Numbered from the stretch's first letter, positions 39,553 to 63,520 are shown. The stretch is 64,000 nt of DNA from Clostridia bacterium (GCA_017405765.1 JAFQZS010000042.1:687-64686), one strand, 5' to 3'. Translations and numbers: made by a program. The notes: generated by a model from the sequence alone, not told the origin.

Positions 39553-39846
39553 TTATTGTTGAAGCGGCTTTTTGAGCTTGTACAGCGTCGTTTTATGGCC
39601 GCTTATTCGGTACGCCAAGAATCCGCCCGCTATAAGCTCGTTTCGCGCACGAAGTACCGTGTGCCGCTTCAGCCCCGTATAATCCGCAAGCAGGCTTAAA
39701 GAAGCGGGAAACCATTCTTGCCAATATGCCGAATTGTTTATATCAACAAGCATTACCCACAAAAGCCGCGCGCTCGGACTTAGCTTTGCCCTTCGCGCCG
39801 TCTGAATATTTGTCCTCATTTCGTCCGTATATGTTCTTTCGGCCAT
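39553..39846 (-). CDS. Winged-helix DNA-binding protein, putative replication initiator
   Basis: ATG 39846 with GGAGG SD 6 nt upstream gives 97 aa. wHTH-like LADYTGLKRHTVLRARNELIAGGFL. It sits directly upstream of the iterons. An alternative GTG start at 39981 would add a 45-aa Arg-rich extension. Confidence 0.6.
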   Translation of the reverse strand: MAERTYTDEMRTNIQTARRAKLSPSARLLWVMLVDINNSAYWQEWFPASLSLLADYTGLKRHTVLRARNELIAGGFLAYRISGHKTTLYKLKKPLQQ

Positions 39847-40172
39847 TCGCCGCCTCCGTCTGTGCCTTCGTCTGTCCTCGCCCCAAAAGTCAAAATCCTG
39901 CCGTGCATGTACCGAATAAACGGCCACAGTCTGACCGTCTGCGCCTATTCTCACACACCACGGGGGGCATACGCCCGTCACTCAAGCCACCCGCTTAACC
40001 TTGCTTCACTTATAAGCATCTTCAGCGTTTCCGGATCGCTCAGGTCCGGCAGAATGAACGTTACGACGCCGCTTTCGTTGTTGTGCCTCAGCTCCGGCAC
40101 GCTGCCCGTTGTCAGTATGACGCGCCTTTCCCCCCCTTGACACGCGCCGCTAATATCGCGTATAATAACAGT

Positions 40173-40248
40173 GTGAGAAATTGACGGTCATTCGTCAAAG
40201 CCTTCTTCCCGCGTTTCCTGTTGCCCACAGGCGCGGGATTTTCTTTTG
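40173..40248 (+). ncRNA. Candidate antisense small RNA upstream of the initiator gene
   Basis: Consensus TTGACA (40137-40142), 18-nt spacer, TATAAT (40161-40166). Hairpin ttgacg/cgtcaa (40181-40198). Terminator cccgcg..cctgt/acagg cgcggg (40208-40237) plus auuuucuuuu. Confidence 0.4.
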
Positions 40249-40250
40249 CC

Positions 40251-40505
40251 CTATACGTCATTTTCGCCACCCCTCGCATCAAACAGATCTTCGGCGTGTC
40301 TGTCCAAAATCTTTTTACTGCTCGCTAATAGTTCGCTTAACGCGTACATACACGACAGCGCGCCCCCGTCATCTACTTTGTTTGAGCTTATGTTAAAACG
40401 ACTTTCTAAAACAAATAGGCTTACTTTTTGAAGCCCCTCGCATATCTCCAACGTTGAATATACGGCCTCTATATCGTCTATGGCTTTTGAAATATCCATG
40501 TTCAT
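40251..40505 (-). CDS. Hypothetical protein
   Basis: Start refined to ATG 40505 (AAGGGGG SD 8 nt upstream). 84 aa with no motif recognised. Confidence 0.6.
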   Translation of the reverse strand: MNMDISKAIDDIEAVYSTLEICEGLQKVSLFVLESRFNISSNKVDDGGALSCMYALSELLASSKKILDRHAEDLFDARGGENDV

Positions 40506-40518
40506 TATTTTTGCCCCC

Positions 40519-40770
40519 TTATAAGACATATTTTTTCAATTCCGTTTCTAACGGCACTTCGCGGCTTTCGTATAATTTCCGTGCGACGTCTGTTACTCTC
40601 CACCTAAGCCGCCCGTTAATACGGACGGCCGGCAGATCTTGCGCCCACTTTTTGCCCGTGGCGGGCTTCACCGCGCCTATTTCGCGCGTAATGTCCGCAA
40701 GCGTCATAGCCCCGCCGTAAAGCTCCCTAAGCTCACGTACAAGAGCTTTTTCTTCCCGTGTCTGTCTCAT
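40519..40770 (-). CDS. Small DNA-binding protein, possible excisionase
   Basis: 83 aa. GGGGGGTGA SD. MTLADITREIGAVKPATGKKWAQDLPAVRINGRLRW resembles Xis/MerR-like wHTH proteins. Its position between cro-like and replication genes fits that role. Confidence 0.5.
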   Translation of the reverse strand: MRQTREEKALVRELRELYGGAMTLADITREIGAVKPATGKKWAQDLPAVRINGRLRWRVTDVARKLYESREVPLETELKKYVL

Positions 40771-40990
40771 TCGTTTTCACCCCCCTTCCGTCTGCCGCTT
40801 CATCGAAGAGATATTCAATGCTCAGCGGTGAGAAAAACGCTTTGTGAATTGCCAGTGCTTCCGCAACCGAAAACTCCGACACGCCGCAGATTTTGTTACG
40901 CACACTTTTGGGGGAGCACCCTAATACCTTTTGAATGTCTTTATTTCGCACCCCCGCGCGCGCCATTTCCGCCTTTAAATTCGCTTTCAT
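40733..40990 (-). CDS. XRE-family HTH protein (Cro-like)
   Basis: 85 aa. MARAGVRNKDIQKVLGCSPKSVRNKICGVSEFSVAEALAI HTH. First gene of the leftward operon. Confidence 0.75.
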   Translation of the reverse strand: MKANLKAEMARAGVRNKDIQKVLGCSPKSVRNKICGVSEFSVAEALAIHKAFFSPLSIEYLFDEAADGRGVKTNETDTGRKSSCT

Positions 40991-41031
40991 TTTTTGCGCC
41001 CCCTTTCACCCTAAAAGGTTATTATACGGGC

Positions 41032-41060
41032 ATTTTACACCTTATTAGGGGATATGTCAA
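41032..41060 (-). promoter_or_regulatory. Leftward (cro-like) early promoter
   Basis: Minus strand reads TTGACA (41060-41055), a 17-nt spacer, then TAAAAT (41037-41032). It is divergent from a weaker TTTACA-17-TAAGCT (41091-41119) serving the cI-like gene. Confidence 0.6.
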
Positions 41061-41140
41061 CACTTTTTTACCCTTTACGGGAAATTTTTCTTTACAAGTT
41101 CGTCTTTTTGCGTTAAGCTAAAAATAAGGAGTGACGCAAA

Positions 41141-41467
41141 ATGACATTAGAAGAACAATTAAAAGCCATAATCTTAGAACAATACAAGAGCATACGCGCC
41201 TTTGCGCAAGAAATCGGCGTACCATACTCAACGCTTGATAATATCTTAAAGCGGCCAAACGGCATAAATAACGCCGGCGTAAGCCTCATGCTAAAAATTT
41301 TCAACGCATTAAACCTTGATATCGAAAGCACACAGACGGGCACCCTTACTCCAAAAATGCAGACGGAAATTGACCCCGAACCTTTAATTGATGCTATAAA
41401 TAAGGTTTTAAGCGAACAAATAAAGGAACAAATCTGCCGAAAGCTACGGAAAAATAAAAGCGAATAA
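41141..41467 (+). CDS. XRE-family HTH repressor (CI-like)
   Basis: 108 aa. SIRAFAQEIGVPYSTLDNILKRPNG HTH. Divergent from the cro-like gene and upstream of int. Confidence 0.8.
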   Translation: MTLEEQLKAIILEQYKSIRAFAQEIGVPYSTLDNILKRPNGINNAGVSLMLKIFNALNLDIESTQTGTLTPKMQTEIDPEPLIDAINKVLSEQIKEQICRKLRKNKSE

Positions 41468-41522
41468 GGCATCGTCGAAAACTCATATAAGCCGCTTCAA
41501 AGTATAAAAAAGAGGTGCAGAC

Positions 41523-42578
41523 ATGAAGATACCGAAAATAAGAAAGCTAGCGTCAGGCGCGTACACTTGCCAGCTTCGCATAAACGGGCAAAGCATAAGT
41601 ATAACCGATTATGACAAAAAGAAAGTTGAACGGCTTGCCGTGGGATATAAAACGGGCATAATAAAAGCCCGCCGTGCGCCGGAACGTATAACCGTAGGCG
41701 AAGCGGTCAACAGATACGCGGAAGAAAAGCGCAACATACTTTCACCGGCCACGGTAAGAGAATATAAGCGCGTAGCACGCACTGACCTTGCCGACATTGC
41801 ATATATGCCCATTGAGGCAATAGCGAAGCAAAGGCCGCTTCAGCGTTTCATAAATGACTTTGCCGCCGACCATTCGCCTAAGAGCGTTCTCAATGTTTAT
41901 AGCCTGCTCACAGCCGCATTAAAAAACGCCGGAGCCGATTTGAGCGATATAAGCGTAACGCTCCCCGAAAAGCATAAGACAAGGCAGCGCACACCCACGG
42001 AACGCGATATAAGCCGCCTTATCGCCTCTATAACGGGCACTCCGCTTGAGGTGCCCGTATACCTTGCCGCGTTCGGTTCGCTGCGCAGAAGCGAAATTTG
42101 CGCCCTCAGGCGCGAAGATATAGCCGATACGGGCGTATGGATAACAAAAGCGTGCGTTAGAAACGATAAAAACAAATGGATCATAAAAGTGCCGAAAGAA
42201 GTTGAAAGCGCACGACATGCCGCGCTGCCGCCTGCCGTTGTAAAAAAGCTGAAGGCCTTGCCGGAAAACAGCCCCGTCACGCAGTTAAACCCTAATCAAA
42301 TCACTATGCGCTTTAATAGACTGCTCAAAAAAGAGGGAATACCCGCGTTCCGCTTCCACGATCTGCGCGCATATTGGGCAAGCGTAGCACACGCGGCAGG
42401 AATGCCGGATTATTACTTGATGAAAAACGGCGGATGGTCTACCATGGAAACGCCGCGTAAACATTATATGCGCGATATGTCGGAGCTTATAACACCGGCG
42501 CAAGACGCCGCGCAGAGCCATTTTGAAAGCCTTCTCGAAGCGGAAAAAGAGGAGAAAAAAATAAAGCTTGTTTTGTGA
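41523..42578 (+). CDS. int: Tyrosine-type site-specific integrase
   Basis: 351 aa. Catalytic signature FGSLRRSEICAL (R), HDLRAYWAS (HxxR) and GWSTMETPRKHYMR (Y). SAM-like N-terminal domain. Confidence 0.92.
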   Translation: MKIPKIRKLASGAYTCQLRINGQSISITDYDKKKVERLAVGYKTGIIKARRAPERITVGEAVNRYAEEKRNILSPATVREYKRVARTDLADIAYMPIEAIAKQRPLQRFINDFAADHSPKSVLNVYSLLTAALKNAGADLSDISVTLPEKHKTRQRTPTERDISRLIASITGTPLEVPVYLAAFGSLRRSEICALRREDIADTGVWITKACVRNDKNKWIIKVPKEVESARHAALPPAVVKKLKALPENSPVTQLNPNQITMRFNRLLKKEGIPAFRFHDLRAYWASVAHAAGMPDYYLMKNGGWSTMETPRKHYMRDMSELITPAQDAAQSHFESLLEAEKEEKKIKLVL

Positions 42579-49174: not shown

Positions 49175-50440
49175 TCAGGTCATCTCCGTTTCGACTATAC
49201 GGCTGTATTCACGCAAAGGATATACGCCGTCGTGCGCCTCGCCGCACACCGTGCGCGACATATTGCCTGCGGATGTTATGCGCACCACGCCGACAAGAGC
49301 AAGCATATTTGATATCTCTTTTCGTTTTTCCTTGTCCTGTGTAAGCACCGCCGCCGTTTGCAGATAATTCTTATGCTTTTTAAGCGAATATAACTTATCA
49401 AGCGGCAACCGCTTTATCCATACGTTCCTGTAAAGATATGAAAGCGCAAGCTCGGAATCTTCACATATCATCACGCTTATTCCGTTTTCGCTCAAGACTT
49501 CGGTCCCCGTAATGTGGCGCTCAAGTCTCTCGTTATAAAGATTTATGGCATTCTTTGCCCTCATGCCGTAATCCTGGGGACGTGATTTTTCATTAGCCTC
49601 TTTTAATATCCGAAAAAATCTTCGGGCAAATTCGTTTTGCGCCTCTTTTGATGTTGTATCGATAAAGATACCCTGACATGAAGAGCATAGAAGCTGATTT
49701 GTATCGCAGATCGACTTTGCCAGCAGATAAAGCTCCGAATCGGAGGCGTCCGGCTCGGCGTATGCAAACGACAGCTTATGGCCCCACGCGATTATCTTTG
49801 TATTTACGTCTGCAAGGCTCCTTGCGGCTTTCACGGCGGCGTCGCCTCCCCACACTACCACGCCGTCGCAAAGATCGGCCAAAGCTTTAAGCGACGCCGT
49901 ATCGGTGGACGGTACATCGAAAACGTAAATATACTCCGAAAGGAGCGGCTCCGTTTTTATAAGCTCGTAAAGGAGCAATACGGAAAGCCCCGAATCGCCC
50001 ATAGGCAGCTTGAGTATATTTATATTGCCCGATAAAAGCCCCTCCACTACGCTGTACGCGGGCAGCGCGTCAACATTGCCTGCGGCTATATGAAGAAGCG
50101 CGCCCAGAGGGTATCTTTTTCTTATTATCTTCCCGTCTATCACCTTTTCGTCGTCGCAAAGCTCAACGGCGCATTTTTTGGTAAGTCCCTCTTTTGTAAA
50201 CAGCTCGCACATGGCGTCAAACTGAGCTTCACTTATATTAAAAAAATCCAAAAACGGCTTTACAACGCTGTCAAATTCTCCTTCTTTGACCCTTCGTACC
50301 AGGGAGTCGCAGGCGTTTATCACCGTTCGGCTTTTAAGCGTCTCTCCTCGATTCAAGGGGGCGTAAAGGTCAGCCCGAAGCGAGGCGATAAGCTCCTCCT
50401 GGCGGCTGTTTTCATAAAGCTTTCCCTTATATAAGATCAT
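49175..50440 (-). CDS. LuxC-like acyl-CoA reductase (aldehyde-forming)
   Basis: Start refined to ATG 50440, overlapping the upstream TGA (ATGA). LHIAAGNVDALPAYSVVEGLLSGNINILKLP and the Cys motif QLLCSSCQGIF resemble the LuxC family. Confidence 0.7.
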   Translation of the reverse strand: MILYKGKLYENSRQEELIASLRADLYAPLNRGETLKSRTVINACDSLVRRVKEGEFDSVVKPFLDFFNISEAQFDAMCELFTKEGLTKKCAVELCDDEKVIDGKIIRKRYPLGALLHIAAGNVDALPAYSVVEGLLSGNINILKLPMGDSGLSVLLLYELIKTEPLLSEYIYVFDVPSTDTASLKALADLCDGVVVWGGDAAVKAARSLADVNTKIIAWGHKLSFAYAEPDASDSELYLLAKSICDTNQLLCSSCQGIFIDTTSKEAQNEFARRFFRILKEANEKSRPQDYGMRAKNAINLYNERLERHITGTEVLSENGISVMICEDSELALSYLYRNVWIKRLPLDKLYSLKKHKNYLQTAAVLTQDKEKRKEISNMLALVGVVRITSAGNMSRTVCGEAHDGVYPLREYSRIVETEMT

Positions 50441-51600
50441 GACTGCTCCTTTAAATACTCCTGTGCGCCTGCGGCGCATGTTATTACATCGCTTATGCCT
50501 ACGCGCCCGATTATCTCAAGCCACGGCGAGGGCGCGCCGCAGGGGCACCCCTCGTTGTGAAGTACGCCCAGGTCGTCCGTCATTACGCTCAAAAGCGGTC
50601 CGCTCTGCATCATCGGCGTAAGTAGATTTATAAGCCCAGCGCGCCCGTTTTCAACAGGCAGAAATGTGTCCGGATCGCGTATTATTACCCTGCTGTAGAC
50701 CGGTATATGAAAATGATGATATTTGCAGTCTGTGTAAAGTATGGGATGCTCGACCGCGCCGAAAAATTCGATAACGTGCTCCTCATCTATGCCGAGCACG
50801 TCCCAAACGAGCTCGTAAAACGCCTTTTTATCGGGCTGCTCTGCGTAAAACTGCTTCCAGCCGCCTCCCAAGGTCACCAAACTGCCGTGCGGCATCTTAT
50901 ATCTTATTTTGCGCTCTTTTAAGCTTCTTAACAGAAAATACGTATAGGCGGGGAAGCCTATCGTGCGCATGGGAAAGCGTGAGCGCGAGGCACGTTCAAA
51001 GGCGCTTAAAACTCTGTCCCACGAAAGCTCGTATCCGTTCTTCGTCACCTCAAGCGCGAACGTGCGGCTCAGTGCCGGAGCGAAGAAGGTAAAGCCCAGC
51101 GCCGTTTTGCTCACAGCCGTCTTATTCGTTTTTGTGGGCTGATATCCGAAGATTATATAATTAGTCGGCACTGGCGACCAGAGCTTATGATATCTGCCCA
51201 CGTTTATGACCATGCGCGAGCCTATGGCGAGAGTCTTTAAATCAAAGCCTATATTCGACATGACTCCGCTAGTGCCGGACGACGTTGCTTTTATGAGCAT
51301 CCGGCTGTCGGGCAGGCTGAAAAGGTCGTGATGCTTAAAATAGAGCGTCGGCAGAAACGGCAGGCGCGCAAGGTCGTCTGCGCCGCGTATCATATCGGGC
51401 GAAAAAGAAAACTCGTCGAGTATTCTCCTGTAATCGGCGCAGTTGTCGTACTGAAAGCGCGCGTTCTCCCGCATTGCGAGAACGAAAAGCTCCTCGCTTC
51501 CCTTCGTGTCGTATATATTTTTATATCCGAAAAGACGACGGGTGTATTTCACCTGTCTCACCTCCGTACTGTCTTTCGCGCCCTTCTTATTTGTCATCAT
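50437..51600 (-). CDS. LuxE-like acyl-protein synthetase / adenylate-forming enzyme
   Basis: 387 aa ORF. ATSSGTSG nucleotide-binding loop and LuxE-like length. There is no SD before ATG 51600. A GTG at 51552 with ACGGAGGTGA 8 nt upstream is a plausible true start. Confidence 0.7.
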   Translation of the reverse strand: MMTNKKGAKDSTEVRQVKYTRRLFGYKNIYDTKGSEELFVLAMRENARFQYDNCADYRRILDEFSFSPDMIRGADDLARLPFLPTLYFKHHDLFSLPDSRMLIKATSSGTSGVMSNIGFDLKTLAIGSRMVINVGRYHKLWSPVPTNYIIFGYQPTKTNKTAVSKTALGFTFFAPALSRTFALEVTKNGYELSWDRVLSAFERASRSRFPMRTIGFPAYTYFLLRSLKERKIRYKMPHGSLVTLGGGWKQFYAEQPDKKAFYELVWDVLGIDEEHVIEFFGAVEHPILYTDCKYHHFHIPVYSRVIIRDPDTFLPVENGRAGLINLLTPMMQSGPLLSVMTDDLGVLHNEGCPCGAPSPWLEIIGRVGISDVITCAAGAQEYLKEQS

Positions 51601-51695: not shown

Positions 51696-53156
51696 TTATT
51701 TGTCTTTCCCGAAAAGTCCGCCCAATCCTCCCGTAGGTTTCTGCGGCTTCTGCGGGCTTGATGCGCCGGGACGCGGCGGCTTCGGCGGATTTGACGTCCC
51801 CGGGCGCGGAGCGCTCTGTGTCGGGCGCGGTACGCCTGAGCTTTGCGTGGGTCTCGGAGGCTGTGCGGGAGTCGGCTTGTGGCCTATGCCCGTACTTCCA
51901 GCCTGTGCGGGGCGCGGCTGCTGTGTGGGGCGCGCCTGCTGGCCCGATCCTGTCTGCGTCGGACGCGGTATTCCTGAGCTTTGCGCAGGTCTGGGCGTCT
52001 GCACAGGTCTCGCCTGCTGACCTAAGCCCATACCCGCCTGCGTCGGACGGGGAGTCTGCTGCGTCGTGTGCGGCTGAGTCGGCTTCGGAATGCCCGAGCC
52101 CTGCGGATGCGGCGGCTTCGGCACTGCCTGCGTCGGACGCGGTATGCCTGAGCTTTGCGTAGGTCTCGGCGGCTGCGTAGGTCTTGGCGGCTGTGTTGGA
52201 CGTGCCTGCTGTGTGGGACGCGCCTGCTGACCCAATCCCATGCCTCCCATCTGATTAGGGCGCGGCATGCCCTGATTGGGGCGCGGCATACCTTGCTGCG
52301 GTCTCTGATTATATCCGAACATGTCGCCCTGCGGGCGCATCGAATTCATGCCGAACATCTGCTGACCCTGCGCGCCGTTATTCATCATATTTCCCATAAG
52401 TCCGCTCATCATCATTGCGGCGGCAGCCGAGCCAAATCCCATTCCCGGCTGTTCTCCGACGCCCATGCCCAGCTGACCGCCGAATCCTCCGTCCATTTGG
52501 ACGTTTCCTTCGCGCTTCGCCTGTTCATACGCCTTTTTACGCTCGAGCGTAAGATATTTGCCGTTGTCAAGGCCGTTAAGATATGTACTTAAAGAAACGC
52601 CGTATATAGATGCGGCTTCCGTTATATCCTCCTTGCTCATGCGAGCGCCTAAGCCCTCCGACTCGCTCTCCGAATCGCCGAGCAGACCTATAAGCATGGA
52701 GAGAATGCTTCCGCCCGTCTGCATCGAATCGGACGAGCTCTCGCCGCCGTATCTGCTCACAACGTCGGCGTGGCGGTCGTATATTATGTCGCGCGCCTCT
52801 ATTATCGGGTCGGGTATCTCATTTGCGCTTCCTACGCGTATCTTTCCGTCGTCTTCCTTTAGCTGCATACCGCAGTAGTCGCATTTGAACGGATTTTCGC
52901 TGGCCCCGCCGCAATACGGGCAAAGCGTCGTCTGTCCCGCAGACTGCGCGCTTGTGGTCACTTCATAGCGGCTGTAATATTCATCTATATGATCCACATT
53001 ATAAAGCACTTCGTTGAGCTTTTCCTTATAGGGGCTGCACTCACTGCACGCATCGGGACCCATTGGGCAGTCGGTGGGACAGAGGGGACAGGGCGGCGTG
53101 AAGTTCTTATTGACTTTTTCCGATGAACCTCCGAACAAATCATCAAACAGTGACAT
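51696..53156 (-). CDS. Zinc-ribbon protein with Q/M/G-rich and RPTQ-repeat low-complexity C-terminal half
   Basis: 486 aa. AAAGGAGA SD. N-terminal Cys clusters (CPLCPTDCP...CSEC; CPYCGG...CDYCG). C-terminal approximately 250 aa of GMG/QQ repeats and more than 10 copies of (Q/P)xRPTQ. Confidence 0.8.
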   Translation of the reverse strand: MSLFDDLFGGSSEKVNKNFTPPCPLCPTDCPMGPDACSECSPYKEKLNEVLYNVDHIDEYYSRYEVTTSAQSAGQTTLCPYCGGASENPFKCDYCGMQLKEDDGKIRVGSANEIPDPIIEARDIIYDRHADVVSRYGGESSSDSMQTGGSILSMLIGLLGDSESESEGLGARMSKEDITEAASIYGVSLSTYLNGLDNGKYLTLERKKAYEQAKREGNVQMDGGFGGQLGMGVGEQPGMGFGSAAAAMMMSGLMGNMMNNGAQGQQMFGMNSMRPQGDMFGYNQRPQQGMPRPNQGMPRPNQMGGMGLGQQARPTQQARPTQPPRPTQPPRPTQSSGIPRPTQAVPKPPHPQGSGIPKPTQPHTTQQTPRPTQAGMGLGQQARPVQTPRPAQSSGIPRPTQTGSGQQARPTQQPRPAQAGSTGIGHKPTPAQPPRPTQSSGVPRPTQSAPRPGTSNPPKPPRPGASSPQKPQKPTGGLGGLFGKDK

Positions 53157-53296
53157 TTATTGTATCTCCTTTCATCATACGCGCGCGTATGCGGCTTTTT
53201 CTTTTATTATATCAACCGCAGGCGGCTATTTCAACACAAACAGTATCACTTTACGTCGTATTTTTGTTAAAAAAGGCTAAAAAAATAAAAAAAACA

Positions 53297-53322
53297 AGCT
53301 CGCAAAAACGAGCTCGTTTTTT
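53297..53322. terminator. Probable bidirectional terminator
   Basis: 6-bp stem agctcg/cgagct flanked by a long A-run and tttttttt. Confidence 0.5.
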
Positions 53323-53337
53323 TTATAAGAATTATCC

Positions 53338-54462
53338 TTACAGTATCTCGGCGAAAGCCTGAAGTCTGGTGCGCGCCTGGTCGTAATTCGTCGGCTGCTG
53401 GTCGATATCGAGCGAGAGCGACGGAATGCCGGCTTCGCGAAGCTGCTTGTTGTAAAGCGGGAAGTCGTACTCCTCGGGGTCGCAGAACTTCATAAGGCAA
53501 ACGACAACGCCCGTAGCCTTCGTCTTATTGCAGAGGTCTAAAAGATGGTCGCCGCGCGAGAATTCTTCGTCGTGAGCGAGGGGGCATGCGAATCTGTTGT
53601 TCCACTGACGCGCGATGCGCTCCATAACAGTCTTGCCCTCGTCGGGGATAAGCGTGCGGTACTGGCGCATTTCCTGGCCGAGGTCGTCTGCAACTACTGC
53701 AAGGCCGTTGTCCTCAAATATCTTAAGGAAGCTTTCTGGCTCCGCAGTTATACCGGTGAGCACTACGCGCTTGCCGGTCCAGTTGTATACGGGGCTTGCC
53801 TCAAGGCCTGCTATGATATCCTTCATTATCTCGATATGCTCGCTCTTCTCAACGAACATGGCGCTCTTCATTACGTTATGGCGAACGGTTGGCGTAATAA
53901 CGTCGAGGTGATCGGGTACGAGGTCGGCGAACTTCATCATAAGCTTTGCGTGCTCGTTGTAAATACTAACGCTGTTTTCAAGAGCCTCGTCGGTTATCTT
54001 CGTGCCGAGAATTTCCTCGATGCAGTTCTTTACGTGATTGTATTCGGTCTCAAGGAATTCCACCGAAGCCGCGAGCTTTCTGTTCTGCGGGAAGCTGAAC
54101 GATATCATGGGAACCTTGACGCCGGACTTCCAGTTCTGCGATACGCAGCGGAAGGTGTCGCACATCGTGGGGATCATTGCCGCCGTCATGCCCTCGTAAG
54201 TGCCGCGAAGACCGAGCTCCATATTCGACTGCATGAGCGGACACGCGAACGCCGGAAGATAGAGCTTTGAGAGCTTCTGCTCCGTCTGAGCGCCCCACAT
54301 GCCCATCGGCACCATGCCTGCCGCGTGAGCTATTACCTCGGGAACGTACATGGGGAAGCAGCCCATTACCTTTTTGCCTGCCGCCAAATATTTTTTGAAC
54401 TGCGCCTTGGGGCTTCTTGCGATTATCTTTACTTCATTGAGTCTTTCTTCAAGATTAGCCAT
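53338..54462 (-). CDS. 2-hydroxyacyl-CoA dehydratase family, small (HgdB/HadC/FldC-like) subunit
   Basis: 374 aa. The length and the N-terminal pattern (KKVMGCFPMYVPEVIAHAAGMVPMGMWG) are typical of the beta subunit. The SD AAGGAGG lies inside the end of the preceding gene. Confidence 0.8.
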   Translation of the reverse strand: MANLEERLNEVKIIARSPKAQFKKYLAAGKKVMGCFPMYVPEVIAHAAGMVPMGMWGAQTEQKLSKLYLPAFACPLMQSNMELGLRGTYEGMTAAMIPTMCDTFRCVSQNWKSGVKVPMISFSFPQNRKLAASVEFLETEYNHVKNCIEEILGTKITDEALENSVSIYNEHAKLMMKFADLVPDHLDVITPTVRHNVMKSAMFVEKSEHIEIMKDIIAGLEASPVYNWTGKRVVLTGITAEPESFLKIFEDNGLAVVADDLGQEMRQYRTLIPDEGKTVMERIARQWNNRFACPLAHDEEFSRGDHLLDLCNKTKATGVVVCLMKFCDPEEYDFPLYNKQLREAGIPSLSLDIDQQPTNYDQARTRLQAFAEIL

Positions 54463-54467
54463 TGTTC

Positions 54468-55727
54468 TTACGCCTCCTTATTTTTCTTGGTTGCTTTAAA
54501 TTCATCCATCAGTTCCGCAAAAGCCTCCATGCGGGTCTCGAACTGCGCCTCGGAATAATTTCTGAAGTCGGACTGGTCGCCGTCGAACGATACGAACGGA
54601 ACGCCCGTTTTCGCCTGTATCTGGCGCTGTACCTCGGCCTGCTGCATATCCATGACCTTGCAGCTTCTGTTTAAGTGGTATATCATGCCGTCGCAGTTGA
54701 ACTTTATAAGGTCGCGGCTGCGGCGTTCGACGAACGTTTCTATCGGCGTATTGTTGCTTGCGTTGAAGGTGTACGCCCGCGCGAGGCTGTCGAGGTCGCC
54801 GGGGATGTAGTCGAGCGCCCATGCGCGCACGTAAGCCGTTACGACCATGTTCATACCGAGCTTTCTCATTATTTTAAGGTTGTGAGCAACGTGCGGCCAG
54901 CATGCGATGCCCTCCCAGTAAACGCGGTATTTCTGCTCGCCCTGATACGTCGAGGTGCCGTTCTTTATGTGCTCCTCTATTTCGGCGATGAGCTGCTTCA
55001 TTATCTCGGTAGTGGAACGTCTGCCGCGGCAGCATACCATTGCCGACATATAGTTGAAAAGCTCGAAGCCGTTTAAGGGCGCGGGGATATTAGTAAGAAG
55101 CTCGTTTGCCTTTATCCAGAGGTCCTTGTTCTCGGTCGATATCTCCATGATCTCGCGGAAGCGGTCCTGGTCGAACTTCTTGCCCGTAAGCTTTTCAAGC
55201 TGCTCTATAATATCGTCCATCTGGGCGCGTATGTACTTCTCACGCGATGGCGTTACGAAGTTCTGATGATTGAACGACATGTCGAGCATAAAAAGCGGGA
55301 TATCGTACTTCCGGCTTAAATTCTCGTACCATTTCGTTACCTGATTGCAGATGTTGTTCGCGCACAGAAGGAAGTCGGGCATGGGCATATTATGCTCGGG
55401 CAGGTCTCGCGACTCGATATACGCAAGGTTTATCTTCGCGTATGAGCATAAGTCGTTGTTGTACTCCTGCTCGCCCTCGGCGCGCTGCAGATACGGCTCC
55501 GCCTGATGGCGCGCCGCGATGCCTGCGGAATGGTTCTCGGGATAAACTACCACGATGCCCAAGGTCTCGCATAATTCCTGCGGGAATATGGAGGCCGACC
55601 AGCCTATCTTTTCTCCGCGGGCCTTTGCCTCCTGCGCCTCCTTATAAAGGTCTGCAAGCTGCTGGCGGACCATTATAAGCGACTTTGACATAGGGCGCTT
55701 GGGCTTTTTTGCTTGCTGCTCACTCAT
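54468..55727 (-). CDS. 2-hydroxyacyl-CoA dehydratase family, large-subunit paralog 3
   Basis: 419 aa. GWSASIFPQELCETLGI, YPENHSA and DLCSYAKINL motifs of the HGD-D family. Near-identical N- and C-termini to the two upstream paralogs. Confidence 0.85.
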   Translation of the reverse strand: MSEQQAKKPKRPMSKSLIMVRQQLADLYKEAQEAKARGEKIGWSASIFPQELCETLGIVVVYPENHSAGIAARHQAEPYLQRAEGEQEYNNDLCSYAKINLAYIESRDLPEHNMPMPDFLLCANNICNQVTKWYENLSRKYDIPLFMLDMSFNHQNFVTPSREKYIRAQMDDIIEQLEKLTGKKFDQDRFREIMEISTENKDLWIKANELLTNIPAPLNGFELFNYMSAMVCCRGRRSTTEIMKQLIAEIEEHIKNGTSTYQGEQKYRVYWEGIACWPHVAHNLKIMRKLGMNMVVTAYVRAWALDYIPGDLDSLARAYTFNASNNTPIETFVERRSRDLIKFNCDGMIYHLNRSCKVMDMQQAEVQRQIQAKTGVPFVSFDGDQSDFRNYSEAQFETRMEAFAELMDEFKATKKNKEA

Positions 55728-55821
55728 TAAAATTTCTCCTAACTTTTATAGTTTTCGGGCTGCGTTTTACGCGTCCCGCGCCGCCGTCCAAGGCAGTACC
55801 TTTGGGCGGCGGATAATTTCT

Positions 55822-57075
55822 TTATTTTTCGTTCTTCATGGCCTTAAATTGGTCCATTACTTCCGTGAACGCTTCCATGCGCGTTTCAAACTGCGCCTCA
55901 GAGTAATTTCTGAAGTCGGACTGATCGCCGTCGAACGAAACGTAGGGCACGCCGGTCTTCTCAGTTACTCTGCGCTGGAGCTCGGCCTGCTGCATATCCA
56001 TTACCTTGCAGCTTCTGTTCAAATGATAGACCATTCCGTCGCACTTGAACTTAATAAGATCGCGGCTGCGCCGTTCGACGAGCGTCTCTATCGGAACGTT
56101 ATTGCTCGACGTAAACGAATACGCACGCGCAAGGCTGTCAAGGTCGCCGGGGATATAGTCGAGCGCCCACGAGCGCACGTAAGCCGTTGCGACGATGTTC
56201 ATGCCGAGCCGCTTCATCACTTTAAGATTATGCGAAACGTGCGGCCAGCACGCGATGCCCTCCCAGAATATGCGGTACTTCTCTTCCACCGGATACGTTG
56301 AGGTGCCGTTTTTTATATGCTCCTCGATCTCCGAGATGAGCTGCTTCATTATCTCGGTAGTAGAGCGCTTGCCGCGGCAGCATACCATGGCGGACATATA
56401 GTTGAAAAGCTCAAAACCGTTAAGCGGAGCAGGGGTGTTTGAAAGAAGCTCGTTGGCCTTCATCCATAAGTCCTTGTTCTCGCTCGATATTTCCATTACC
56501 TCGCGGAAGCGATCCTGGTCGAACTTTTTGCCGGTAAGCTCCTCGAGCGAGGCTATTATATCGTCCATCTGAGCGCGTATATATTTCATGCGCGTGGGCG
56601 TCACGAATGGCTGATGGTTATATACCATATCGAGCATATACACCGGCACGCCGTACTTATCTCCTATGTTTTCGTACCACTTCGTTACCTGATTGCAGAT
56701 GTTGTTCGCACACAACAGAAAATCGGGCATCGGCATATTATGCTCGGGCAGGTCTCTCGTCTCGATATACGCAAGATTTATCTTCGCATAGGAGCATAAG
56801 TCGTTGTTGTACTCCTGCTCTCCCTCAGCGCGGTTAAGATACGGCTCCGCCTGATGACGCGCCGCAACACCCGCCGAATGGTTCTCCGGGAACACGACTG
56901 TTATGCCGAGCGTTTCGCAGATCTCCTGCGGGAATATCGAAGCCGACCAGCCTATCTTTTCGCCGCGCGCTTTTGCGGCTTCGGCCTCTTTATAAAGGTC
57001 GGCAAGCTGCTGACGCACCATTATGAGCGACTTTGACATGGGGCGCTTCGGCTTTTTTACCTGCTGTTCACTCAT
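55822..57075 (-). CDS. 2-hydroxyacyl-CoA dehydratase family, large-subunit paralog 2
   Basis: 417 aa. Colinear with paralogs 1 and 3 over its full length. Confidence 0.85.
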   Translation of the reverse strand: MSEQQVKKPKRPMSKSLIMVRQQLADLYKEAEAAKARGEKIGWSASIFPQEICETLGITVVFPENHSAGVAARHQAEPYLNRAEGEQEYNNDLCSYAKINLAYIETRDLPEHNMPMPDFLLCANNICNQVTKWYENIGDKYGVPVYMLDMVYNHQPFVTPTRMKYIRAQMDDIIASLEELTGKKFDQDRFREVMEISSENKDLWMKANELLSNTPAPLNGFELFNYMSAMVCCRGKRSTTEIMKQLISEIEEHIKNGTSTYPVEEKYRIFWEGIACWPHVSHNLKVMKRLGMNIVATAYVRSWALDYIPGDLDSLARAYSFTSSNNVPIETLVERRSRDLIKFKCDGMVYHLNRSCKVMDMQQAELQRRVTEKTGVPYVSFDGDQSDFRNYSEAQFETRMEAFTEVMDQFKAMKNEK

Positions 57076-57109
57076 TGCGGATTCTCCTTATACTTCGGAT
57101 TTTACGATA

Positions 57110-58369
57110 TCAGCCTTTCTTTGCTTCTCTTATTGCCTTATGCTGATCCATTATCTCGGTAAACGCCTCCATACGCGTCTCGAACTGCGCCTCGGAGTAA
57201 TTTCTGAAGTCGGACTGGTCGCCGTCGAACGAAACGTAGGGTACGCCCGTCTTCTCTGTAAGTCTGCGCTGTATCTCGGACTGCTGCATAGCCATTACCT
57301 TGCAGCTTCTGTTCAAATGATAGATCATGCCGTCGCAGTTGAACTTGATAAGGTCGCGGCTGCGCCGTTCAACGAGCGTTTCTACCGGCGTGTTGTTCGA
57401 CGGCGTGAAGGTGTACGCCTTTATAAGGCTGTCAAGGTCGCCGGGAACGTAGTCGAGCGCCCACGCGCGCACATAAGCCGTCGCTACGATGTTCATGCCG
57501 AGCCGCTTCATCGTCTTGAAGTTATGCGAGAAATGCGGCCAGCACGCGATGCCCTCCCAGAAGATGCGGTACTTCTGCTCTCCGGGATACGTGGAATCGC
57601 CCTTCGCTATATGCTCCTCTATTTCGGAGATGAGCTGCTTCATTATCTCGGTAGTGGAGCGCTTGCCTCGGCAGCATACCATTGCCGACATATAATTGAA
57701 AAGCTCAAAGCCGTTAAGCGGAGCGGGGCTGTTTGCCATAAGCTCGTTCGCCTTTATCCAAAGGTCCTTGTTCTCCGCCGATATCTCCATTACCTCGCGG
57801 AAGCGGTCCTGGTCGAACTTTTTGCCCGTAAGCTTCTCGAGCGACGCGATTATATCGTCCATCTGAGCGCGAATATATTTAAGGCGCGAATCAGTAACGA
57901 AGTTCTGATGATTGAACGACATATCGAGCATATATACGGGAACGTTGTATCTCTTGCCGATATTTTCGTACCACTTTGTTACCTGGTTGCAAATGTTGTT
58001 CGCAATAAGCATGAAGTCCGGCAGCGGCATATTGTTCGCTTCAAGATTTCTCGTGTCGATATACGACAGGTTTATCTTTGCGTAAGAGCATATGTCGTTG
58101 TTGTACTCAAGCTCGCCCTCGGCGCGCTGAAGGAACGGGTCCGCCTGATGACGCGCCGCAATGCCTGCCGAATGGTTCTCGGGATAGAGCACCACGAGAC
58201 CAAGCGTCTCGCAGATCTCCTGCGGGAATATAGATGCGGCCCAACCGATCTTTTCACCGCGTGCTTTTGCCTCTCCCGCTTCCGTATAAAGGTCGGCCAG
58301 CTGCTGGCGCACCATGATAAGCGATTTTGACATGGGCCTCTTCGGCTTTTTTACCTGCTGTTCACTCAT
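57110..58369 (-). CDS. 2-hydroxyacyl-CoA dehydratase family, large-subunit paralog 1
   Basis: 419 aa. Colinear with paralogs 2 and 3 over its full length. Confidence 0.85.
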   Translation of the reverse strand: MSEQQVKKPKRPMSKSLIMVRQQLADLYTEAGEAKARGEKIGWAASIFPQEICETLGLVVLYPENHSAGIAARHQADPFLQRAEGELEYNNDICSYAKINLSYIDTRNLEANNMPLPDFMLIANNICNQVTKWYENIGKRYNVPVYMLDMSFNHQNFVTDSRLKYIRAQMDDIIASLEKLTGKKFDQDRFREVMEISAENKDLWIKANELMANSPAPLNGFELFNYMSAMVCCRGKRSTTEIMKQLISEIEEHIAKGDSTYPGEQKYRIFWEGIACWPHFSHNFKTMKRLGMNIVATAYVRAWALDYVPGDLDSLIKAYTFTPSNNTPVETLVERRSRDLIKFNCDGMIYHLNRSCKVMAMQQSEIQRRLTEKTGVPYVSFDGDQSDFRNYSEAQFETRMEAFTEIMDQHKAIREAKKG

Positions 58370-58446
58370 TACAAAACCTCCCTGATATTTATTTTATAAA
58401 TAATATTTTTAATATTGCTTCTGCTGCCTTTATACTGATGTGCGCA

Positions 58447-59064
58447 CTATCTTATCCTCGGAAGCTTCCAGCGATAATGCGCGGCTATGATGCGAAGGAT
58501 CACGATGACCACCGCTCCGATGAACATGGCCGGCACCTCGCCTAAAAAGCGCCACAACACCACGCATACGACGGCGCCTATCAAAGACGCAGTCGCGTAG
58601 AAGTGCTTTACGAAGATGAACGGTATATCCTTTGCCAGCACGTCTCTTAAAATGCCGCCGCCCACTCCCGTTATGACTCCTACCGATACGATAAGAAACG
58701 CATTCGCTTTAAGATCTGCCGAATACGCGACCTGCATACCGCTGACAGTAAATATTCCCAGTCCTATCGAATCCATCCACAAGAGCACCGTCTCATAGCT
58801 TTTCGGCATACGCCTAAACAGGCGCAGCGCCTCAAGCGTGAAGACGGCGACGCCCACGCCGAACGCCGTAAGCGCGTAGACGGGAGCCCGAAACGCCGTC
58901 GGCGGCGTGACGCCCAATATAACGTCGCGTATTATCCCGCCGCCTACGGCCGTAGCCATTGCGAGGATAGTTACGCCGAAGACGTCCATTTTCTTCTGTA
59001 TGCCCACCAAGGCGCCCGATATGGCGAAGGCTATGGTGCCGATGATCTCAAGGAAGAATATCAT
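58447..59064 (-). CDS. TRIC/UPF0126-family (YadS-like) membrane protein
   Basis: 205 aa. Seven predicted TM helices with the duplicated glycine-rich motif GGGIIRDV / GGGILRDV. Confidence 0.8.
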   Translation of the reverse strand: MIFFLEIIGTIAFAISGALVGIQKKMDVFGVTILAMATAVGGGIIRDVILGVTPPTAFRAPVYALTAFGVGVAVFTLEALRLFRRMPKSYETVLLWMDSIGLGIFTVSGMQVAYSADLKANAFLIVSVGVITGVGGGILRDVLAKDIPFIFVKHFYATASLIGAVVCVVLWRFLGEVPAMFIGAVVIVILRIIAAHYRWKLPRIR

Positions 59065-59125
59065 TTTTTAACACCTGCCGTTTTAAAACGCGATGACGTA
59101 CGCATCTTTTGAAAAGGCGGCCGAT

Positions 59126-59926
59126 TTATTTGCTCTCTTTTGCTTTTTTCTCCTTTAAAAGCTCATCCCATGCAAAAAGCGCCGCTCCCAGCGCTCCCGC
59201 AAGCTGACAATCCTCGGGAACGGTGATCTTATGGCCGATCTCTTTTTCCATTGCGCGTACAATGCCCTTATTTCTTGCAACGCCGCCGCTCATAACAACG
59301 TCGTCTATAACGCCTACGCGTAAAGCCTGACCGCTTACTCTCTTTGCTACCGAAGCATGTATGCCCGCTATTATATCCTCGATCTTTTCTTTTGAAGAAA
59401 GCCTGGATATTACTTCGGATTCCGCAAATACGGTGCATGTATTGTTTATCGTTATCTCCTTCGTAGAAAGCTCGGATATGTCGCCCATATCCTCGACCTT
59501 TACGTCGAGCACGCGCGCCATAACGTCCAAGAATCTGCCCGTGCCCGCCGCGCATTTGTCGTTCATAACGAAGTTCATAAGCGCGCCGTTCGGCGCAAGC
59601 GACAGCGCCTTCGCGTCCTGTCCGCCTATATCTATTATAGTGCGCGCCGTGGGCACGAGAAAGCGTATGCCCTTCGCATGGCACGATACTTCGCTTATCT
59701 GACGCTTTGCAAACTCAAAGCTGTAGCGCCCGTAGCCTGTGGAAAGCGCATAATCTATCTCGTCGGTCGTGATGCCTGCCATTTCAAGCACCGTATCGAA
59801 TACCGTCTGAGCGCCGCTTGTACCGGTGCCGAGCGGGATTATCTTTTTTGCGAGGATCTTTTCCCCGTCCTCCAAAAGAACGGCCTTAGAAGTGGTCGAA
59901 CCTATGTCAATGCCGAGTGTTATCAT
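59126..59926 (-). CDS. Radical-enzyme activase (HgdC/HadI-type ASKHA ATPase, BcrAD_BadFG family)
   Basis: Start refined to ATG 59926 (GGAGG SD 5 nt upstream), giving 266 aa. LGIDIGSTTSKAV phosphate-1 motif, IIDIGGQDAK, and CAAGTGRFLD carrying the cluster-ligand Cys. Confidence 0.88.
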   Translation of the reverse strand: MITLGIDIGSTTSKAVLLEDGEKILAKKIIPLGTGTSGAQTVFDTVLEMAGITTDEIDYALSTGYGRYSFEFAKRQISEVSCHAKGIRFLVPTARTIIDIGGQDAKALSLAPNGALMNFVMNDKCAAGTGRFLDVMARVLDVKVEDMGDISELSTKEITINNTCTVFAESEVISRLSSKEKIEDIIAGIHASVAKRVSGQALRVGVIDDVVMSGGVARNKGIVRAMEKEIGHKITVPEDCQLAGALGAALFAWDELLKEKKAKESK

Positions 59927-59990
59927 TTCTTCCTCCGTATTTATATTTTTATACAATTTGTTGCTTTTTTAATGACGTAAATACATAATC

Positions 59991-60019
59991 ATTATACTAT
60001 AAATATAAATTCTTGTAAA
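59991..60019 (-). promoter_or_regulatory. Promoter of the activase-dehydratase operon
   Basis: Minus strand reads TTTACA (60019-60014), a 17-nt spacer, then TATAAT (59996-59991). Confidence 0.65.
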
Positions 60020-61089: not shown

Positions 61090-61498
61090 TTTCGTTCTTC
61101 CACACGTCGGGCGCGCTATCCCAATCAAATTCGGCGTCCTCGTCGAATGCGGGCGCGTCGGCAAGTATCTTTTTTGCGCGCTCAAGCTCGTTTTCGGGCA
61201 CTATGACGTACACGCCTATGCTCGTCATGCCGGTAAAAATGCTTACGTACTGGCTCGAGCCCTTGTAATATTTTCTCGCCGGTATGCCGTAAAATCCGAG
61301 TACGGATATCATCTGGTCCGCTTGCATATCGCCCGTGTTCTTTTCAAGCACTGCCCATGTGGAAACGTCGTCGCGGGCTATCCACGGCTTTTTCGGGGAC
61401 AGTTTTTCATGGCAGGCGGGACATTCGGTCATATCGGGCTCGAATTCGCGGCCGCATTTTACGCAGTATTTCGGTTTAGACTGCTTCAAGAGCGTCAC
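61070..61498 (-). CDS. Zinc-ribbon + DUF2007-like small protein
   Basis: 142 aa. CVKCG...CPAC ribbon, then a region resembling the PII-like putative signal-transducing fold. Overlaps both neighbours, which suggests translational coupling. Confidence 0.5.
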   Translation of the reverse strand: MTLLKQSKPKYCVKCGREFEPDMTECPACHEKLSPKKPWIARDDVSTWAVLEKNTGDMQADQMISVLGFYGIPARKYYKGSSQYVSIFTGMTSIGVYVIVPENELERAKKILADAPAFDEDAEFDWDSAPDVWKNENEQENG

Positions 61499-62423
61499 TC
61501 TCCTTCAATCTGTAATAGAGCGTGTTGTCTTTGAAAAAGTATTCAAACACGCCGCTCAGAACGAAATTATTCGCCATGGAATGTATCATTATTCTCGCCG
61601 TGCTGTAATACGCCAGATTTTCAAGATGCAGACGCACGTCGCCCGCCACTTTCGTAAGAAGGTCGTCAAGATGCACCGGCATACGCGCCGCTTTTTTCAT
61701 GCTTGTCTCAAGTCTTTTCGTCATTTTAAAGTAATACTCCCCCGCAAGGCGCGCATCGTCGAAAGCGGTCCCGTGGGCGGGTATGTATTTTATACATTCG
61801 GTCTCCATTATGCGCTCGATCGAGCGGCTCATCGCCTCGGGCGAAGTAACGTACATGACCTTGTTTCTCCTCATTGATTCGGGGTCCAAAAGCGCGTCGC
61901 CCGTGAAGAACACGCCGTCGCATATAACGCCTATGTGGCCGTCGGAGTGGCCCGGAAGCGACACCGTGCGAAGCTCTCTGCCGTCAATATTTATCGTGCT
62001 GTCGGCCTCTATTACGACAGGCTCCGTCTTTTGAAGGCTTCCGAAGTCCTCGAGGCCGTTCTTTAACGGCAGCACCATCTCCGAGAACAACACGTGGAAC
62101 ATATTCTCCGTGCCGCGCATAAAAAGCGACTCGAAGAGCGTACAGTATATGGGACAGCCCGTGCGGTCGGCGATGTATTTATTCGCTCCGGCGTGGTCGA
62201 GGTGCGCGTGCGTGTTTATTATGGCGGCGGGCTTCTTTCCGATGCGCTCAAGCTCCGAAAGTATGGCTCTGCCCTGCTTTTCTCCCCATCCTGTATCTAT
62301 AAGTATGACGCCGTGATCGCTCATTATAAGTCCCACGTTAGTGAACAGCTCCAAATATCCGAGCTCGACGCCCTCGAAGCTTTTTATATATCCGACTCTG
62401 TCGGTTATCATTTCAATAGCCAT
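61476..62423 (-). CDS. MBL-fold metallo-hydrolase (paralog 1)
   Basis: 315 aa. THAHLDHAG (HxHxDH) motif and a downstream PGHSDGH. Confidence 0.85.
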   Translation of the reverse strand: MAIEMITDRVGYIKSFEGVELGYLELFTNVGLIMSDHGVILIDTGWGEKQGRAILSELERIGKKPAAIINTHAHLDHAGANKYIADRTGCPIYCTLFESLFMRGTENMFHVLFSEMVLPLKNGLEDFGSLQKTEPVVIEADSTINIDGRELRTVSLPGHSDGHIGVICDGVFFTGDALLDPESMRRNKVMYVTSPEAMSRSIERIMETECIKYIPAHGTAFDDARLAGEYYFKMTKRLETSMKKAARMPVHLDDLLTKVAGDVRLHLENLAYYSTARIMIHSMANNFVLSGVFEYFFKDNTLYYRLKESDALEAV

Positions 62424-62436
62424 AACAAATCTCCCG

Positions 62437-63372
62437 TCACGCTCTCGTTTTGAGTTTTGCTTCCCTGATCTCGCCGGGCATAAGCTTTTTATAATAAAAC
62501 ATATTGTCTTTTACGATATAATCCATGGTATCATGCATTACGCAGTCGTTCAAAACGCATTGTATGGTCACGCGCGCCGTGTTGTAGGTGCGAAGGTCGC
62601 GAAGCCTGAGCGCAAGCTTTGTCGAAACATGCTGTACCGCCGTATCAAGCGTTACGGGGCCGTTCTCAAGCGCCTCGCGCGTAAATGTTTCGATGCGCGA
62701 CAGCATCTCCACCATCATGTCGCAGGCCTCGTTCGGGTCTTTTACGGGCGAGCCGTGCGAGGGCACATACAGATCGTAGGACGATTCGCGTATGCGGGCA
62801 AGAGTTTCAAGCTCAAGCGTCGGATTTGTCATGTATATAAGCTTTCTGGGGCGCATCCAGTCGGGGCCTACTATCGCGTCGCCGCAGAAAAGGATATTGT
62901 CCACGGCTATGGCCACATGACCGTCGGAATGACCGGGCGTCGATATTATATCAAACGTCACGCCGTCTATCGTCACTTGTCCGTTATCGGGTATCACGCT
63001 CAGCTTGGTGGGATTTAAGGCCTCCGATATCCCCAGTCCGTCCATGATCGGGTTTGGGCATCCCGTAAAAAGCGCCGGAAAAAGCTGCTTTGCGCCTCTC
63101 ACCATAAGAGATTCGTAAAGCGTGCAGTATACGGTGCAGTCCGTCTCCTTATAAAGAAAATAATTGGCTCCCGCATGGTCAAGATGCGTATGCGTGTTGA
63201 TTATAGCAATAAGCTTTTTGTCTATTGCCTCAAGCTCCGCAAGTATCTCGCGTCCCTGCTTTCGCCCCCAGCCGTTATCTATCATTATAACGCCGTTGTC
63301 TGAGAAGACAACGCCGTCAACCGTAAGTTCACCCGTAAGCCCTACGCGGGGCGTAAGCATTTTAATTGCCAT
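62437..63372 (-). CDS. MBL-fold metallo-hydrolase (paralog 2)
   Basis: Start refined to ATG 63372 (MAIKMLTPRVG, parallel to MAIEMITDRVG of paralog 1). THTHLDHAG and PGHSDGH motifs. Confidence 0.85.
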   Translation of the reverse strand: MAIKMLTPRVGLTGELTVDGVVFSDNGVIMIDNGWGRKQGREILAELEAIDKKLIAIINTHTHLDHAGANYFLYKETDCTVYCTLYESLMVRGAKQLFPALFTGCPNPIMDGLGISEALNPTKLSVIPDNGQVTIDGVTFDIISTPGHSDGHVAIAVDNILFCGDAIVGPDWMRPRKLIYMTNPTLELETLARIRESSYDLYVPSHGSPVKDPNEACDMMVEMLSRIETFTREALENGPVTLDTAVQHVSTKLALRLRDLRTYNTARVTIQCVLNDCVMHDTMDYIVKDNMFYYKKLMPGEIREAKLKTRA

Positions 63373-63520
63373 AACGCAAAATCCTTTCATAATTAAAAAC
63401 ACATTCCTATTTAATATAATAAAACAGTAATTAAATGTCAAGCAAGCCTTAAATATAACGCCTTGAAGCGCGCACAAAAACATGATATATTATAATAAAC
63501 GTCTAAAAACGGAGGACGAT

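Follow-up and report, generated by a model that had tools for sequence, protein, structure and literature searches.

A HadBC-type 2-hydroxyacyl-CoA dehydratase operon with three alpha genes and a single beta gene in a ruminant-gut lineage of Clostridia

The 2-hydroxyacyl-CoA dehydratases (HADs) carry out a key and chemically difficult step of reductive amino-acid fermentation, and they shape the gut metabolite pool with respect to phenylpropionate, indolepropionate and isocaproate. To our knowledge, all characterised HADs are fixed 1:1 pairs of an alpha and a beta subunit. The question raised by the locus described here is what three alpha genes are doing beside one beta gene. The locus is an operon on the minus strand of a 64-kb stretch of Clostridia bacterium DNA (64,000 nucleotides, GCA_017405765.1, JAFQZS010000042.1:687-64686; this whole stretch is referred to as the window), and it codes for an activase, a membrane protein of the UPF0126/TRIC family, three consecutive alphas (A1, A2 and A3) and one beta. 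The enzyme system itself is well known; what is new is a HadBC-type dehydratase operon with three alphas per beta, which is found in one uncultured ruminant-gut lineage. We consider it rather probable that the three alphas are alternative catalytic subunits, with the sharing of one beta and one activase and the differing specificity of the copies being what we infer.

The operon and its enzyme family

The best match to the window proteins, in terms of both sequence and fold, is the 2-hydroxyisocaproyl-CoA dehydratase HadBC of C. difficile with its activase HadI (PDB 3O3M, 3O3N and 3O3O), and this applies to alpha, beta and activase. All three alphas are recognised by PF06050 with a domain that spans the whole protein (254–257 bits against a cut-off of 28.4, E about 1e-75). 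A1 matches the HadB chain (3O3M_A) at E 2e-126 and beta matches the HadC chain (3O3M_B) at E 2e-119 with 49.7% identity, while the alphas are 46–47% identical to HadB and each of them is about 23% identical to beta. The NCBIfam equivalog models for HadB and HadC are also the best matches, yet the scores stay under the cut-off (505–513 against 750 bits for the alphas, 473 against 700 bits for beta), indicating that the proteins are members of the HadBC branch to which a substrate is not assignable. Benzoyl-CoA reductase (BCR) and double-cubane proteins gave far weaker matches than HadB and HadC. The BCR equivalog models scored 103–135 bits against cut-offs of 421–487, and with one activase gene only, the locus falls outside the class I BCRs. 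The latter (BzdNOPQ, MbdONPQ and BcrABCD) belong to the same superfamily and have the same fold and the same three-cysteine cluster coordination in the substrate-binding subunit, but their similarity to the window proteins is much weaker (E 1e-33, 21–25% identity), and they have two different ATPase subunits with stoichiometric use of ATP, whereas the window has a single activase gene.

Cys94, Cys127, Cys356 and Glu64 are invariant across A1–A3 and in 14 of 14 aligned relatives. The three cysteines align with C84, C117 and C346 of HadB, and together with the glutamate they align with Cys95, Cys128, Cys380 and Glu65 of BzdO; the coordination of the HadB cluster is the same as that of BzdO according to the BzdNO structure paper (PMC11971306). 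The core catalytic motifs are identical in A1, A2 and A3. In beta, seven cysteines (C35, C74, C101, C106, C293, C322 and C327) align with cysteines of HadC, and its ratio of nonsynonymous to synonymous substitution rates (omega) is 0.05–0.09. The AlphaFold model of A2, the only copy modelled, had a predicted local distance difference test score (pLDDT) of 82.8 and a predicted template modelling score (pTM) of 0.85. It superposed on HadB (3O3M_A) with a template modelling score (TM) of 0.89–0.93 and a 2.0-Å root-mean-square deviation, as opposed to a TM of about 0.7 for beta-type chains.

The activase open reading frame (ORF) extends over 59126-59956, but translation probably begins at the ATG at 59926, with a GGAGGA ribosome-binding site (RBS) in front of it; independent gene calls also give a protein of 266 amino acids. 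It scores 285 bits with TIGR00241 against a cut-off of 125 and matches PF01869 at 2e-67. Two candidate cluster cysteines, Cys125 and Cys164, are present, and omega is about 0.05 relative to orthologs.

The operon is thus predicted to encode a HadBC-type radical (R)-2-hydroxyacyl-CoA dehydratase system together with its activase. An earlier note on the window had placed the locus in the HGD-D dehydratase family with an HgdC-type activase, and the HadB/HadC matches, the cysteines and TIGR00241 bear this out, with placement in the dehydratase branch and not in the BCR branch. The [4Fe-4S] cysteine ligands, the glutamate of the PEN motif and the order activase-alpha-beta are shared with HadBC/HadI, and the ATP-primed ketyl-radical dehydration is presumably the same. 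The differences from HadBC are nevertheless considerable: the identity is 46–50% only, there are three alphas per beta instead of one, a UPF0126 gene separates the activase from the alphas, and no hadA-type CoA-transferase, acyl-CoA dehydrogenase or electron-transferring flavoprotein genes are found beside the operon. FldABC/FldI (Clostridium sporogenes), HgdAB-HgdC and LcdAB-LcdC, compared by description only, belong to the same family and follow the same two-component logic (PMC11574389). In Oscillospiraceae and other gut Clostridia, HadBC-like loci with a single alpha keep the activase-alpha-beta order, often with a transporter gene nearby.

The six consecutive ORFs lie on the minus strand at 60019-53285 (Table 1), all of them where the earlier note had located them. 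The promoter is the best promoter-like site within 49-61.5 kb and precedes the ATG of the activase by about 65 nt, and the gene that follows the terminator has its own promoter at 53234->53206. A single promoter and a single terminator, seen together with the separate promoter of the next gene, point to a six-gene operon transcribed as one unit. The spacers are short and contain RBSs, and an Rfam search upstream of and inside the operon gave no leader or riboswitch with a meaningful score. The A3 stop codon is 5 nt before the beta ATG, with the motif AAGGAGG inside the 3' end of A3 as read from the sequence, and in relatives with a single alpha this gene overlaps with beta. Upstream of A3 come A1 and A2, each with an RBS of its own. 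The A2-A3 spacer has a minimum free energy of -34.3 kcal/mol (z = -3.8) and no U-tract after its 13-bp hairpin; its structure might serve to tune relative expression. A similar hairpin-type spacer lies between A1 and A3 in two relatives (L002 and L014, see below), and the short A1-A2 spacer of the window resembles instead the A1-A3 spacer of another (L001). As regards A2, the annotated start in the NCBI record MBQ3379716.1 is Met19 (399 amino acids). The 417-amino-acid form is more likely to be correct, since an AAGGAG RBS precedes the upstream ATG and all paralogs and outgroups conserve the first 18 residues.

Table 1. Predicted features of the dehydratase operon, in the order of transcription (positions counted from the first letter of the window)
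Feature	Position	Strand	Remarks
Sigma-70-type promoter, TTTACA-17-TATAAT	59991..60019	-	11/12 consensus positions
HAD activase (component A, HadI/HgdC type), 266 amino acids	59126..59926	-	TIGR00241, PF01869
UPF0126/TRIC-family membrane protein, 205 amino acids	58447..59064	-	two PF03458 repeats
Alpha A1, HadB-like catalytic subunit, 419 amino acids	57110..58369	-	PF06050 (HGD-D)
Alpha A2, strain-variable copy, 417 amino acids	55822..57075	-	PF06050 (HGD-D)
A2-A3 spacer, 94 nt, structured, with 13-bp GC-rich hairpin and A3 RBS	55728..55821	-	
Alpha A3, 419 amino acids, ancestral position directly before beta	54468..55727	-	PF06050 (HGD-D)
Single beta, HadC-like electron-storage subunit, 374 amino acids	53338..54462	-	PF06050 at 3e-81
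Terminator-like hairpin with T-run	53285..53326	-	19-pair stem, 12 nt past the beta stop codon

Age, divergence and strain distribution of the alpha copies

The three alphas are colinear, have the N-terminus MSEQQ(V/A)KKPKRPMSKSLIMVRQQLADLY in common, and display amino acid identities of 84% (A1/A2), 81% (A1/A3) and 85% (A2/A3), in agreement with what had been noticed by eye, i.e. three tandem paralogs that are identical at most positions and have one partner (3:1). At the DNA level, the paralog pairs are 80–82% identical, with 0.8–1.1 synonymous substitutions per site (dS) and omega values of 0.08–0.125. The same operon with two alphas is present in two metagenome-assembled genomes (MAGs) of ruminant-gut Clostridia, L001 (sheep duodenum) and L002 (dairy cattle), and this two-alpha operon with a single beta also occurs on several metagenome contigs. 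The A1 orthologs in L001 and L002 are 96–98% identical (omega 0.02–0.03) and the A3 orthologs 95–99%, and ortholog omega overall is 0.02–0.06. At a dS of about 0.8, nonsynonymous substitutions per site (dN) amount to 0.09–0.11 in the paralogs as against 0.025–0.03 in the orthologs, that is, 3–4 times more amino acid change, indicating that the proteins changed faster after duplication and were tightly constrained afterwards.

In a neighbour-joining tree the three copies form a single clade with 91% bootstrap support, the branching order among them being unresolved (46%), and L009 and L016, two loci with one alpha each, come out as its sisters. The single clade, the trichotomy and the high dS argue for two closely spaced tandem duplications, which took place in the ancestor of this ruminant-gut lineage, and not for a recent amplification. 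Recent amplification had been offered in the earlier note beside subunit swapping, and a plain increase in alpha dosage with functionally alike copies would agree with genes that are colinear, in tandem and present in 2 or 3 copies depending on the strain. The dS and omega values and the DNA identity of only 80–82% refute it, as do the orthologs of 96–99% identity that A1 and A3 each have in other genomes and a trichotomy old enough to predate the strain splits. Moreover, alpha alone was multiplied and not beta, and the amount of holoenzyme would therefore not rise. We hold dosage amplification to be extremely improbable. As a sign of amplification the note had named a copy number that varies between strains together with substitutions confined to surface or synonymous sites; the copy number does vary, but the substitutions include amino acid changes that have been under selection.

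Differences among A2 and the clades of A1 and A3 occur at 68 positions. When polarised by outgroups, these positions fall into 18 A1-derived, 17 A2-unique and 10 A3-derived ones, 7 at which all three differ, 7 unpolarised ones, and 5 and 4 with a derived state shared by A1+A2 and by A2+A3, respectively. Changes peculiar to one copy also affect family-conserved positions, defined as being at least 85% conserved among 72 family members. A1 has nine of these (S44A, L93I, A102S, L120M, T258D, L284F, A316I, R317K and D360A), A2 has three (Y62F, A302S and I349V) and A3 has four (I52L, K236R, K288R and A296V). Some are sequence neighbours of catalytic elements: position 44 is beside W43, position 62 is two residues before E64, position 93 is beside C94 and position 360 is four residues after C356. 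An origin of A2 as an old A3/A1 hybrid by unequal crossing-over was also considered, as the raw informative sites looked mosaic. It was rejected because the outgroup-polarised signal was mostly A1-specific derived, with nearly balanced shared-derived classes (5 vs 4), and because the trichotomy gave it no support in the tree.

A2 differs from the other copies in its distribution, as a search of 5.8e9 proteins returned no A2 ortholog of more than 87% identity apart from that of its own strain. A contig from another metagenome, L015, carries the activase, UPF0126, an A1 that is 99.8% identical to that of L001, and then an A2-type gene. The first 145 codons of this gene are closer to A2 (97% amino acid and 94% DNA identity) than to A3 (90% and 84%). 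The dS between A2 and this partial ortholog is 0.27 with an omega of 0.08, and the A2-specific residues are kept. L015 and L001 are 96–100% identical up to the A1 stop codon and divergent right after it. L001 is without about 1.36 kb of the window sequence, a stretch that begins at the end of A1 and stops just short of A3, and past this gap the DNA identity between L001 and the window rises from about 89% to about 97% over A3 and the first ~300 bp of beta (compared stretches: window 55728-54200, L001 11288-12900). In keeping with this, A3 has a dS of 0.15 between L001 and the window, compared to values from 0.43 (beta) to 1.16 for the other operon genes, which are ~82–90% identical in DNA. The jump in identity at the A2 indel indicates a putative recent recombination tract or a strain-chimeric MAG contig in L001. 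A2 thus appears to be lost or variably present in some strains, giving the lineage a copy number of 2 or 3.

The window also derives from a MAG, and the possible strain mixing in L001 might lend some colour to the view that the third copy is an assembly artefact or that the contig is chimeric between strains. This is hardly credible, however, given that three ENA assemblies (two named samples and one without a known sample) repeat the three-alpha array at an identity of at least 99.97%, with contig-name styles that differ among the assemblies and may reflect different assemblers. Furthermore, copies with about 82% DNA identity are too divergent for an assembler to collapse or duplicate, and the adjacency of A1 and A2 is independently confirmed by L015, which represents a different strain and also has A1 followed by the A2-type gene. 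A second HAD locus in one genome (GCA_016648615.1) was withdrawn, as its accessions (JAEEGL01...) represent a bulk metagenome assembly.

Rarity of the architecture and role of the UPF0126 protein

Scanning of metagenome contigs with the family alignment gave 80 loci, which together with earlier ones made up 83 loci outside the lineage (L005-L009 and L016-L093) with alphas 53–81% identical to A2. A single alpha was found in 83/83 of them and a family-III CoA-transferase in 72/83, and none contained UPF0126 or LuxE/LuxC genes. The combination of two or three alphas, UPF0126 and no CoA-transferase was found only in the lineage of the window, and the alpha:beta gene ratio is 3:1 in the window, 2:1 in its lineage relatives and 1:1 in all the other loci. 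The copy number in relatives thus confirms that the architecture is unusual. A literature search gave no description of a multi-alpha HAD operon, but its coverage of subscription journals was poor, which makes this weak evidence of absence.

The Fld, Hgd and Lcd dehydratases are described as having one alpha and one beta and are usually encoded beside a CoA-transferase, and in the case of Fld the transferase FldA is in a complex with FldBC. Neither a CoA-transferase nor a dedicated 2-hydroxyacid dehydrogenase was detected among the ORFs of the window that were scanned, as the earlier note had stated for the flanks of the operon, and the flanks of L001 had none either. The window shows that a HAD operon can do without a CoA-transferase of its own. 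Two overlapping genes at 49175-51600 on the minus strand code for an acyl-activating enzyme similar to LuxE (PF04443) and an acyl-CoA reductase similar to LuxC (PF05893). All lineage relatives have this pair in synteny with the HAD operon, and none of the 83 other HAD loci has it; the pair could supply or consume acyl thioesters in place of a CoA-transferase.

The UPF0126 protein matches PF03458 twice (1.5e-45); seven segments of it are hydrophobic, and GGG kink motifs occur in it twice, as AVGGGIIRDV and GVGGGILRDV. It resembles the TRIC/UPF0126 family in its two PF03458 repeats, seven transmembrane segments and glycine-rich kinks, but differs from it in genetic setting, as members of the family are not known from radical-dehydratase operons. 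The gene is part of the operon in all lineage relatives, with 78–85% amino acid identity and omega values of 0.09–0.15. Bacterial TRIC homologs have been solved structurally as cation channels (PMC5477506), and UPF0126 genes were specifically required for glycine use in five bacteria, where mutants were defective in it, and glycine transport was put forward as their function (10.1101/072470). Transporter genes of other families occur in related HAD loci, such as GntP and MFS in L005 and TRAP in L007. Based on these transporters and on the fitness evidence for UPF0126, transport of the acid substrate or product is the simplest reading and the most likely function of the protein. A channel gene in a redox-enzyme operon had been called unexplained; the gene for a seven-transmembrane UPF0126 protein is indeed there, but with a plausible transporter role it need no longer be regarded as unexplained. 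The locus offers a concrete genetic context for asking what a bacterial UPF0126/TRIC protein transports.

Possible use of the three alphas, and further features of the window

In HADs, the substrate site and the catalytic cluster are located in alpha, and beta is the subunit that meets the activase (PMC11574389, PMC7317905). The activase spends ATP to inject one low-potential electron into the [4Fe-4S] cluster of beta, and beta hands the electron to the cluster of alpha, which binds the thioester; the ketyl radical formed at alpha lets the 2-hydroxyl leave, and beta then stores the returned electron (PMC11574389, PMC7317905). If alternative catalytic subunits share an electron-delivery module, one would expect alpha alone to be multiplied and beta and activase to stay single, as is the case here. 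Every alpha would then combine with the one beta and depend on the one activase. Up to three isoenzymes would result, their active sites tuned differently, and they would therefore probably differ in 2-hydroxyacyl-CoA substrates or kinetics. The UPF0126 protein would act as importer or exporter of the acid substrate or product, replacing the GntP, TRAP or MFS proteins of related loci, and CoA activation would have to be provided from another part of the genome. The suggestion of the earlier note that subunits are swapped to suit different substrates is compatible with the evidence.

Some observations weigh against alternative catalytic subunits for different substrates. Within ±5 residues of the catalytic anchors, copy-specific sites show no enrichment (7 sites in 55 positions by hand count, compared to about 9 expected), and many of the substitutions are conservative, involving I, L and V. 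A2 is dispensable in several related strains. Beta is translationally coupled to A3 only and could be limiting for A1 and A2, and the binding of all three alphas to beta is, like their difference in substrates, something that we infer. Our view covers the window, and further beta genes or a CoA-transferase may be located elsewhere in the genome. Finally, the nearest UPF0126 homologs outside the lineage adjoin HxlR regulators and not HAD genes, from which it follows that the association of UPF0126 with the dehydratase is lineage-specific and could be incidental.

The lack of enrichment near the anchors, the conservative nature of many changes and the dispensability of A2 would, along with the identical core motifs, also suit isoforms for one and the same substrate, either equivalent or differing only in kinetics or regulation, for example in oxygen or redox tolerance or in expression. 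We judge this unlikely: each copy has been under strong purifying selection over a dS of about 1, fixed non-conservative changes have arisen at family-invariant sites (T258D, A316I and D360A in A1, Y62F and A302S in A2), and the common promoter limits separate regulation. The coupling of beta to A3 only, the homology and common fold of alpha and beta, and the restriction of our view to the window could instead mean that not all alphas pair with the operon beta, but form alpha-alpha' heteromers, use unlinked betas or include one non-catalytic member. Such pairing seems quite improbable to us, since alpha-type features are kept in all three, the A2 model has a TM of 0.9 to alpha as opposed to 0.7 to beta chains, and two-alpha relatives in the lineage also encode a single beta in the operon.

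Alternative catalytic subunits with a common beta and activase could be part of a wider arrangement, which we put forward tentatively and with more doubt than confidence. One beta and one activase might constitute a modular dehydratase that serves strain-variable, interchangeable alpha "cassettes" with different pockets, so that several 2-hydroxyacyl-CoAs, which could for example be derived from different amino acids, are dehydrated. In such an arrangement the acids would be moved by UPF0126, and thioesters would be formed independently of an operon CoA-transferase, possibly by way of the syntenic LuxE-type enzyme. If it is true that one beta and activase serve several alphas, substrate range could evolve by a swap of the catalytic subunit alone. 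The principle of subunit swapping could then be used in engineering, and annotation pipelines would need to account for several alphas. If, on the other hand, the copies are functionally equivalent, they would amount to a lineage-specific expansion of a gene family and nothing more.

Several neighbouring features of the window and its relatives were also recorded. Directly downstream of beta in all lineage relatives, and at 51696-53156 on the minus strand of the window, lies a gene for a 486-amino-acid protein with N-terminal cysteine-rich, zinc-ribbon-like motifs and a long C-terminal proline-rich repeat of the PRPTQ type; no Pfam family matches it, and the gene is equipped with a promoter and a terminator of its own. 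In two-alpha relatives (L004 580-1080; L014), an HTH_3 (Xre-type) regulator gene lies between an Acyl_transf_3 gene and the activase gene, and it is absent from the window and the identical ENA copies. Upstream of the Acyl_transf_3 gene, the window contains two tandem paralogs with a metallo-beta-lactamase fold (315 and 348 amino acids, 61476-63483, minus strand), which makes them the second set of tandem paralogs in this neighbourhood. In L009, the closest single-alpha locus, a protein with a biotin/lipoyl-carrier domain (3-344) is encoded just upstream of the activase and may point to a link with a biotin-dependent decarboxylase in that relative. Further away in the window, a T-box leader (111 bits) is found on the plus strand at 14363-14623, upstream of an ilvC-leuA-leuCD-leuB operon (14720-20348). 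The region 34082-42578 starts with a tRNA-Leu (34082-34164), which is followed by a DnaB-like helicase, two sigma-70-like/DUF1492 proteins and a tyrosine integrase (41523-42578), and the block after the tRNA is probably a mobile element integrated at the tRNA gene.

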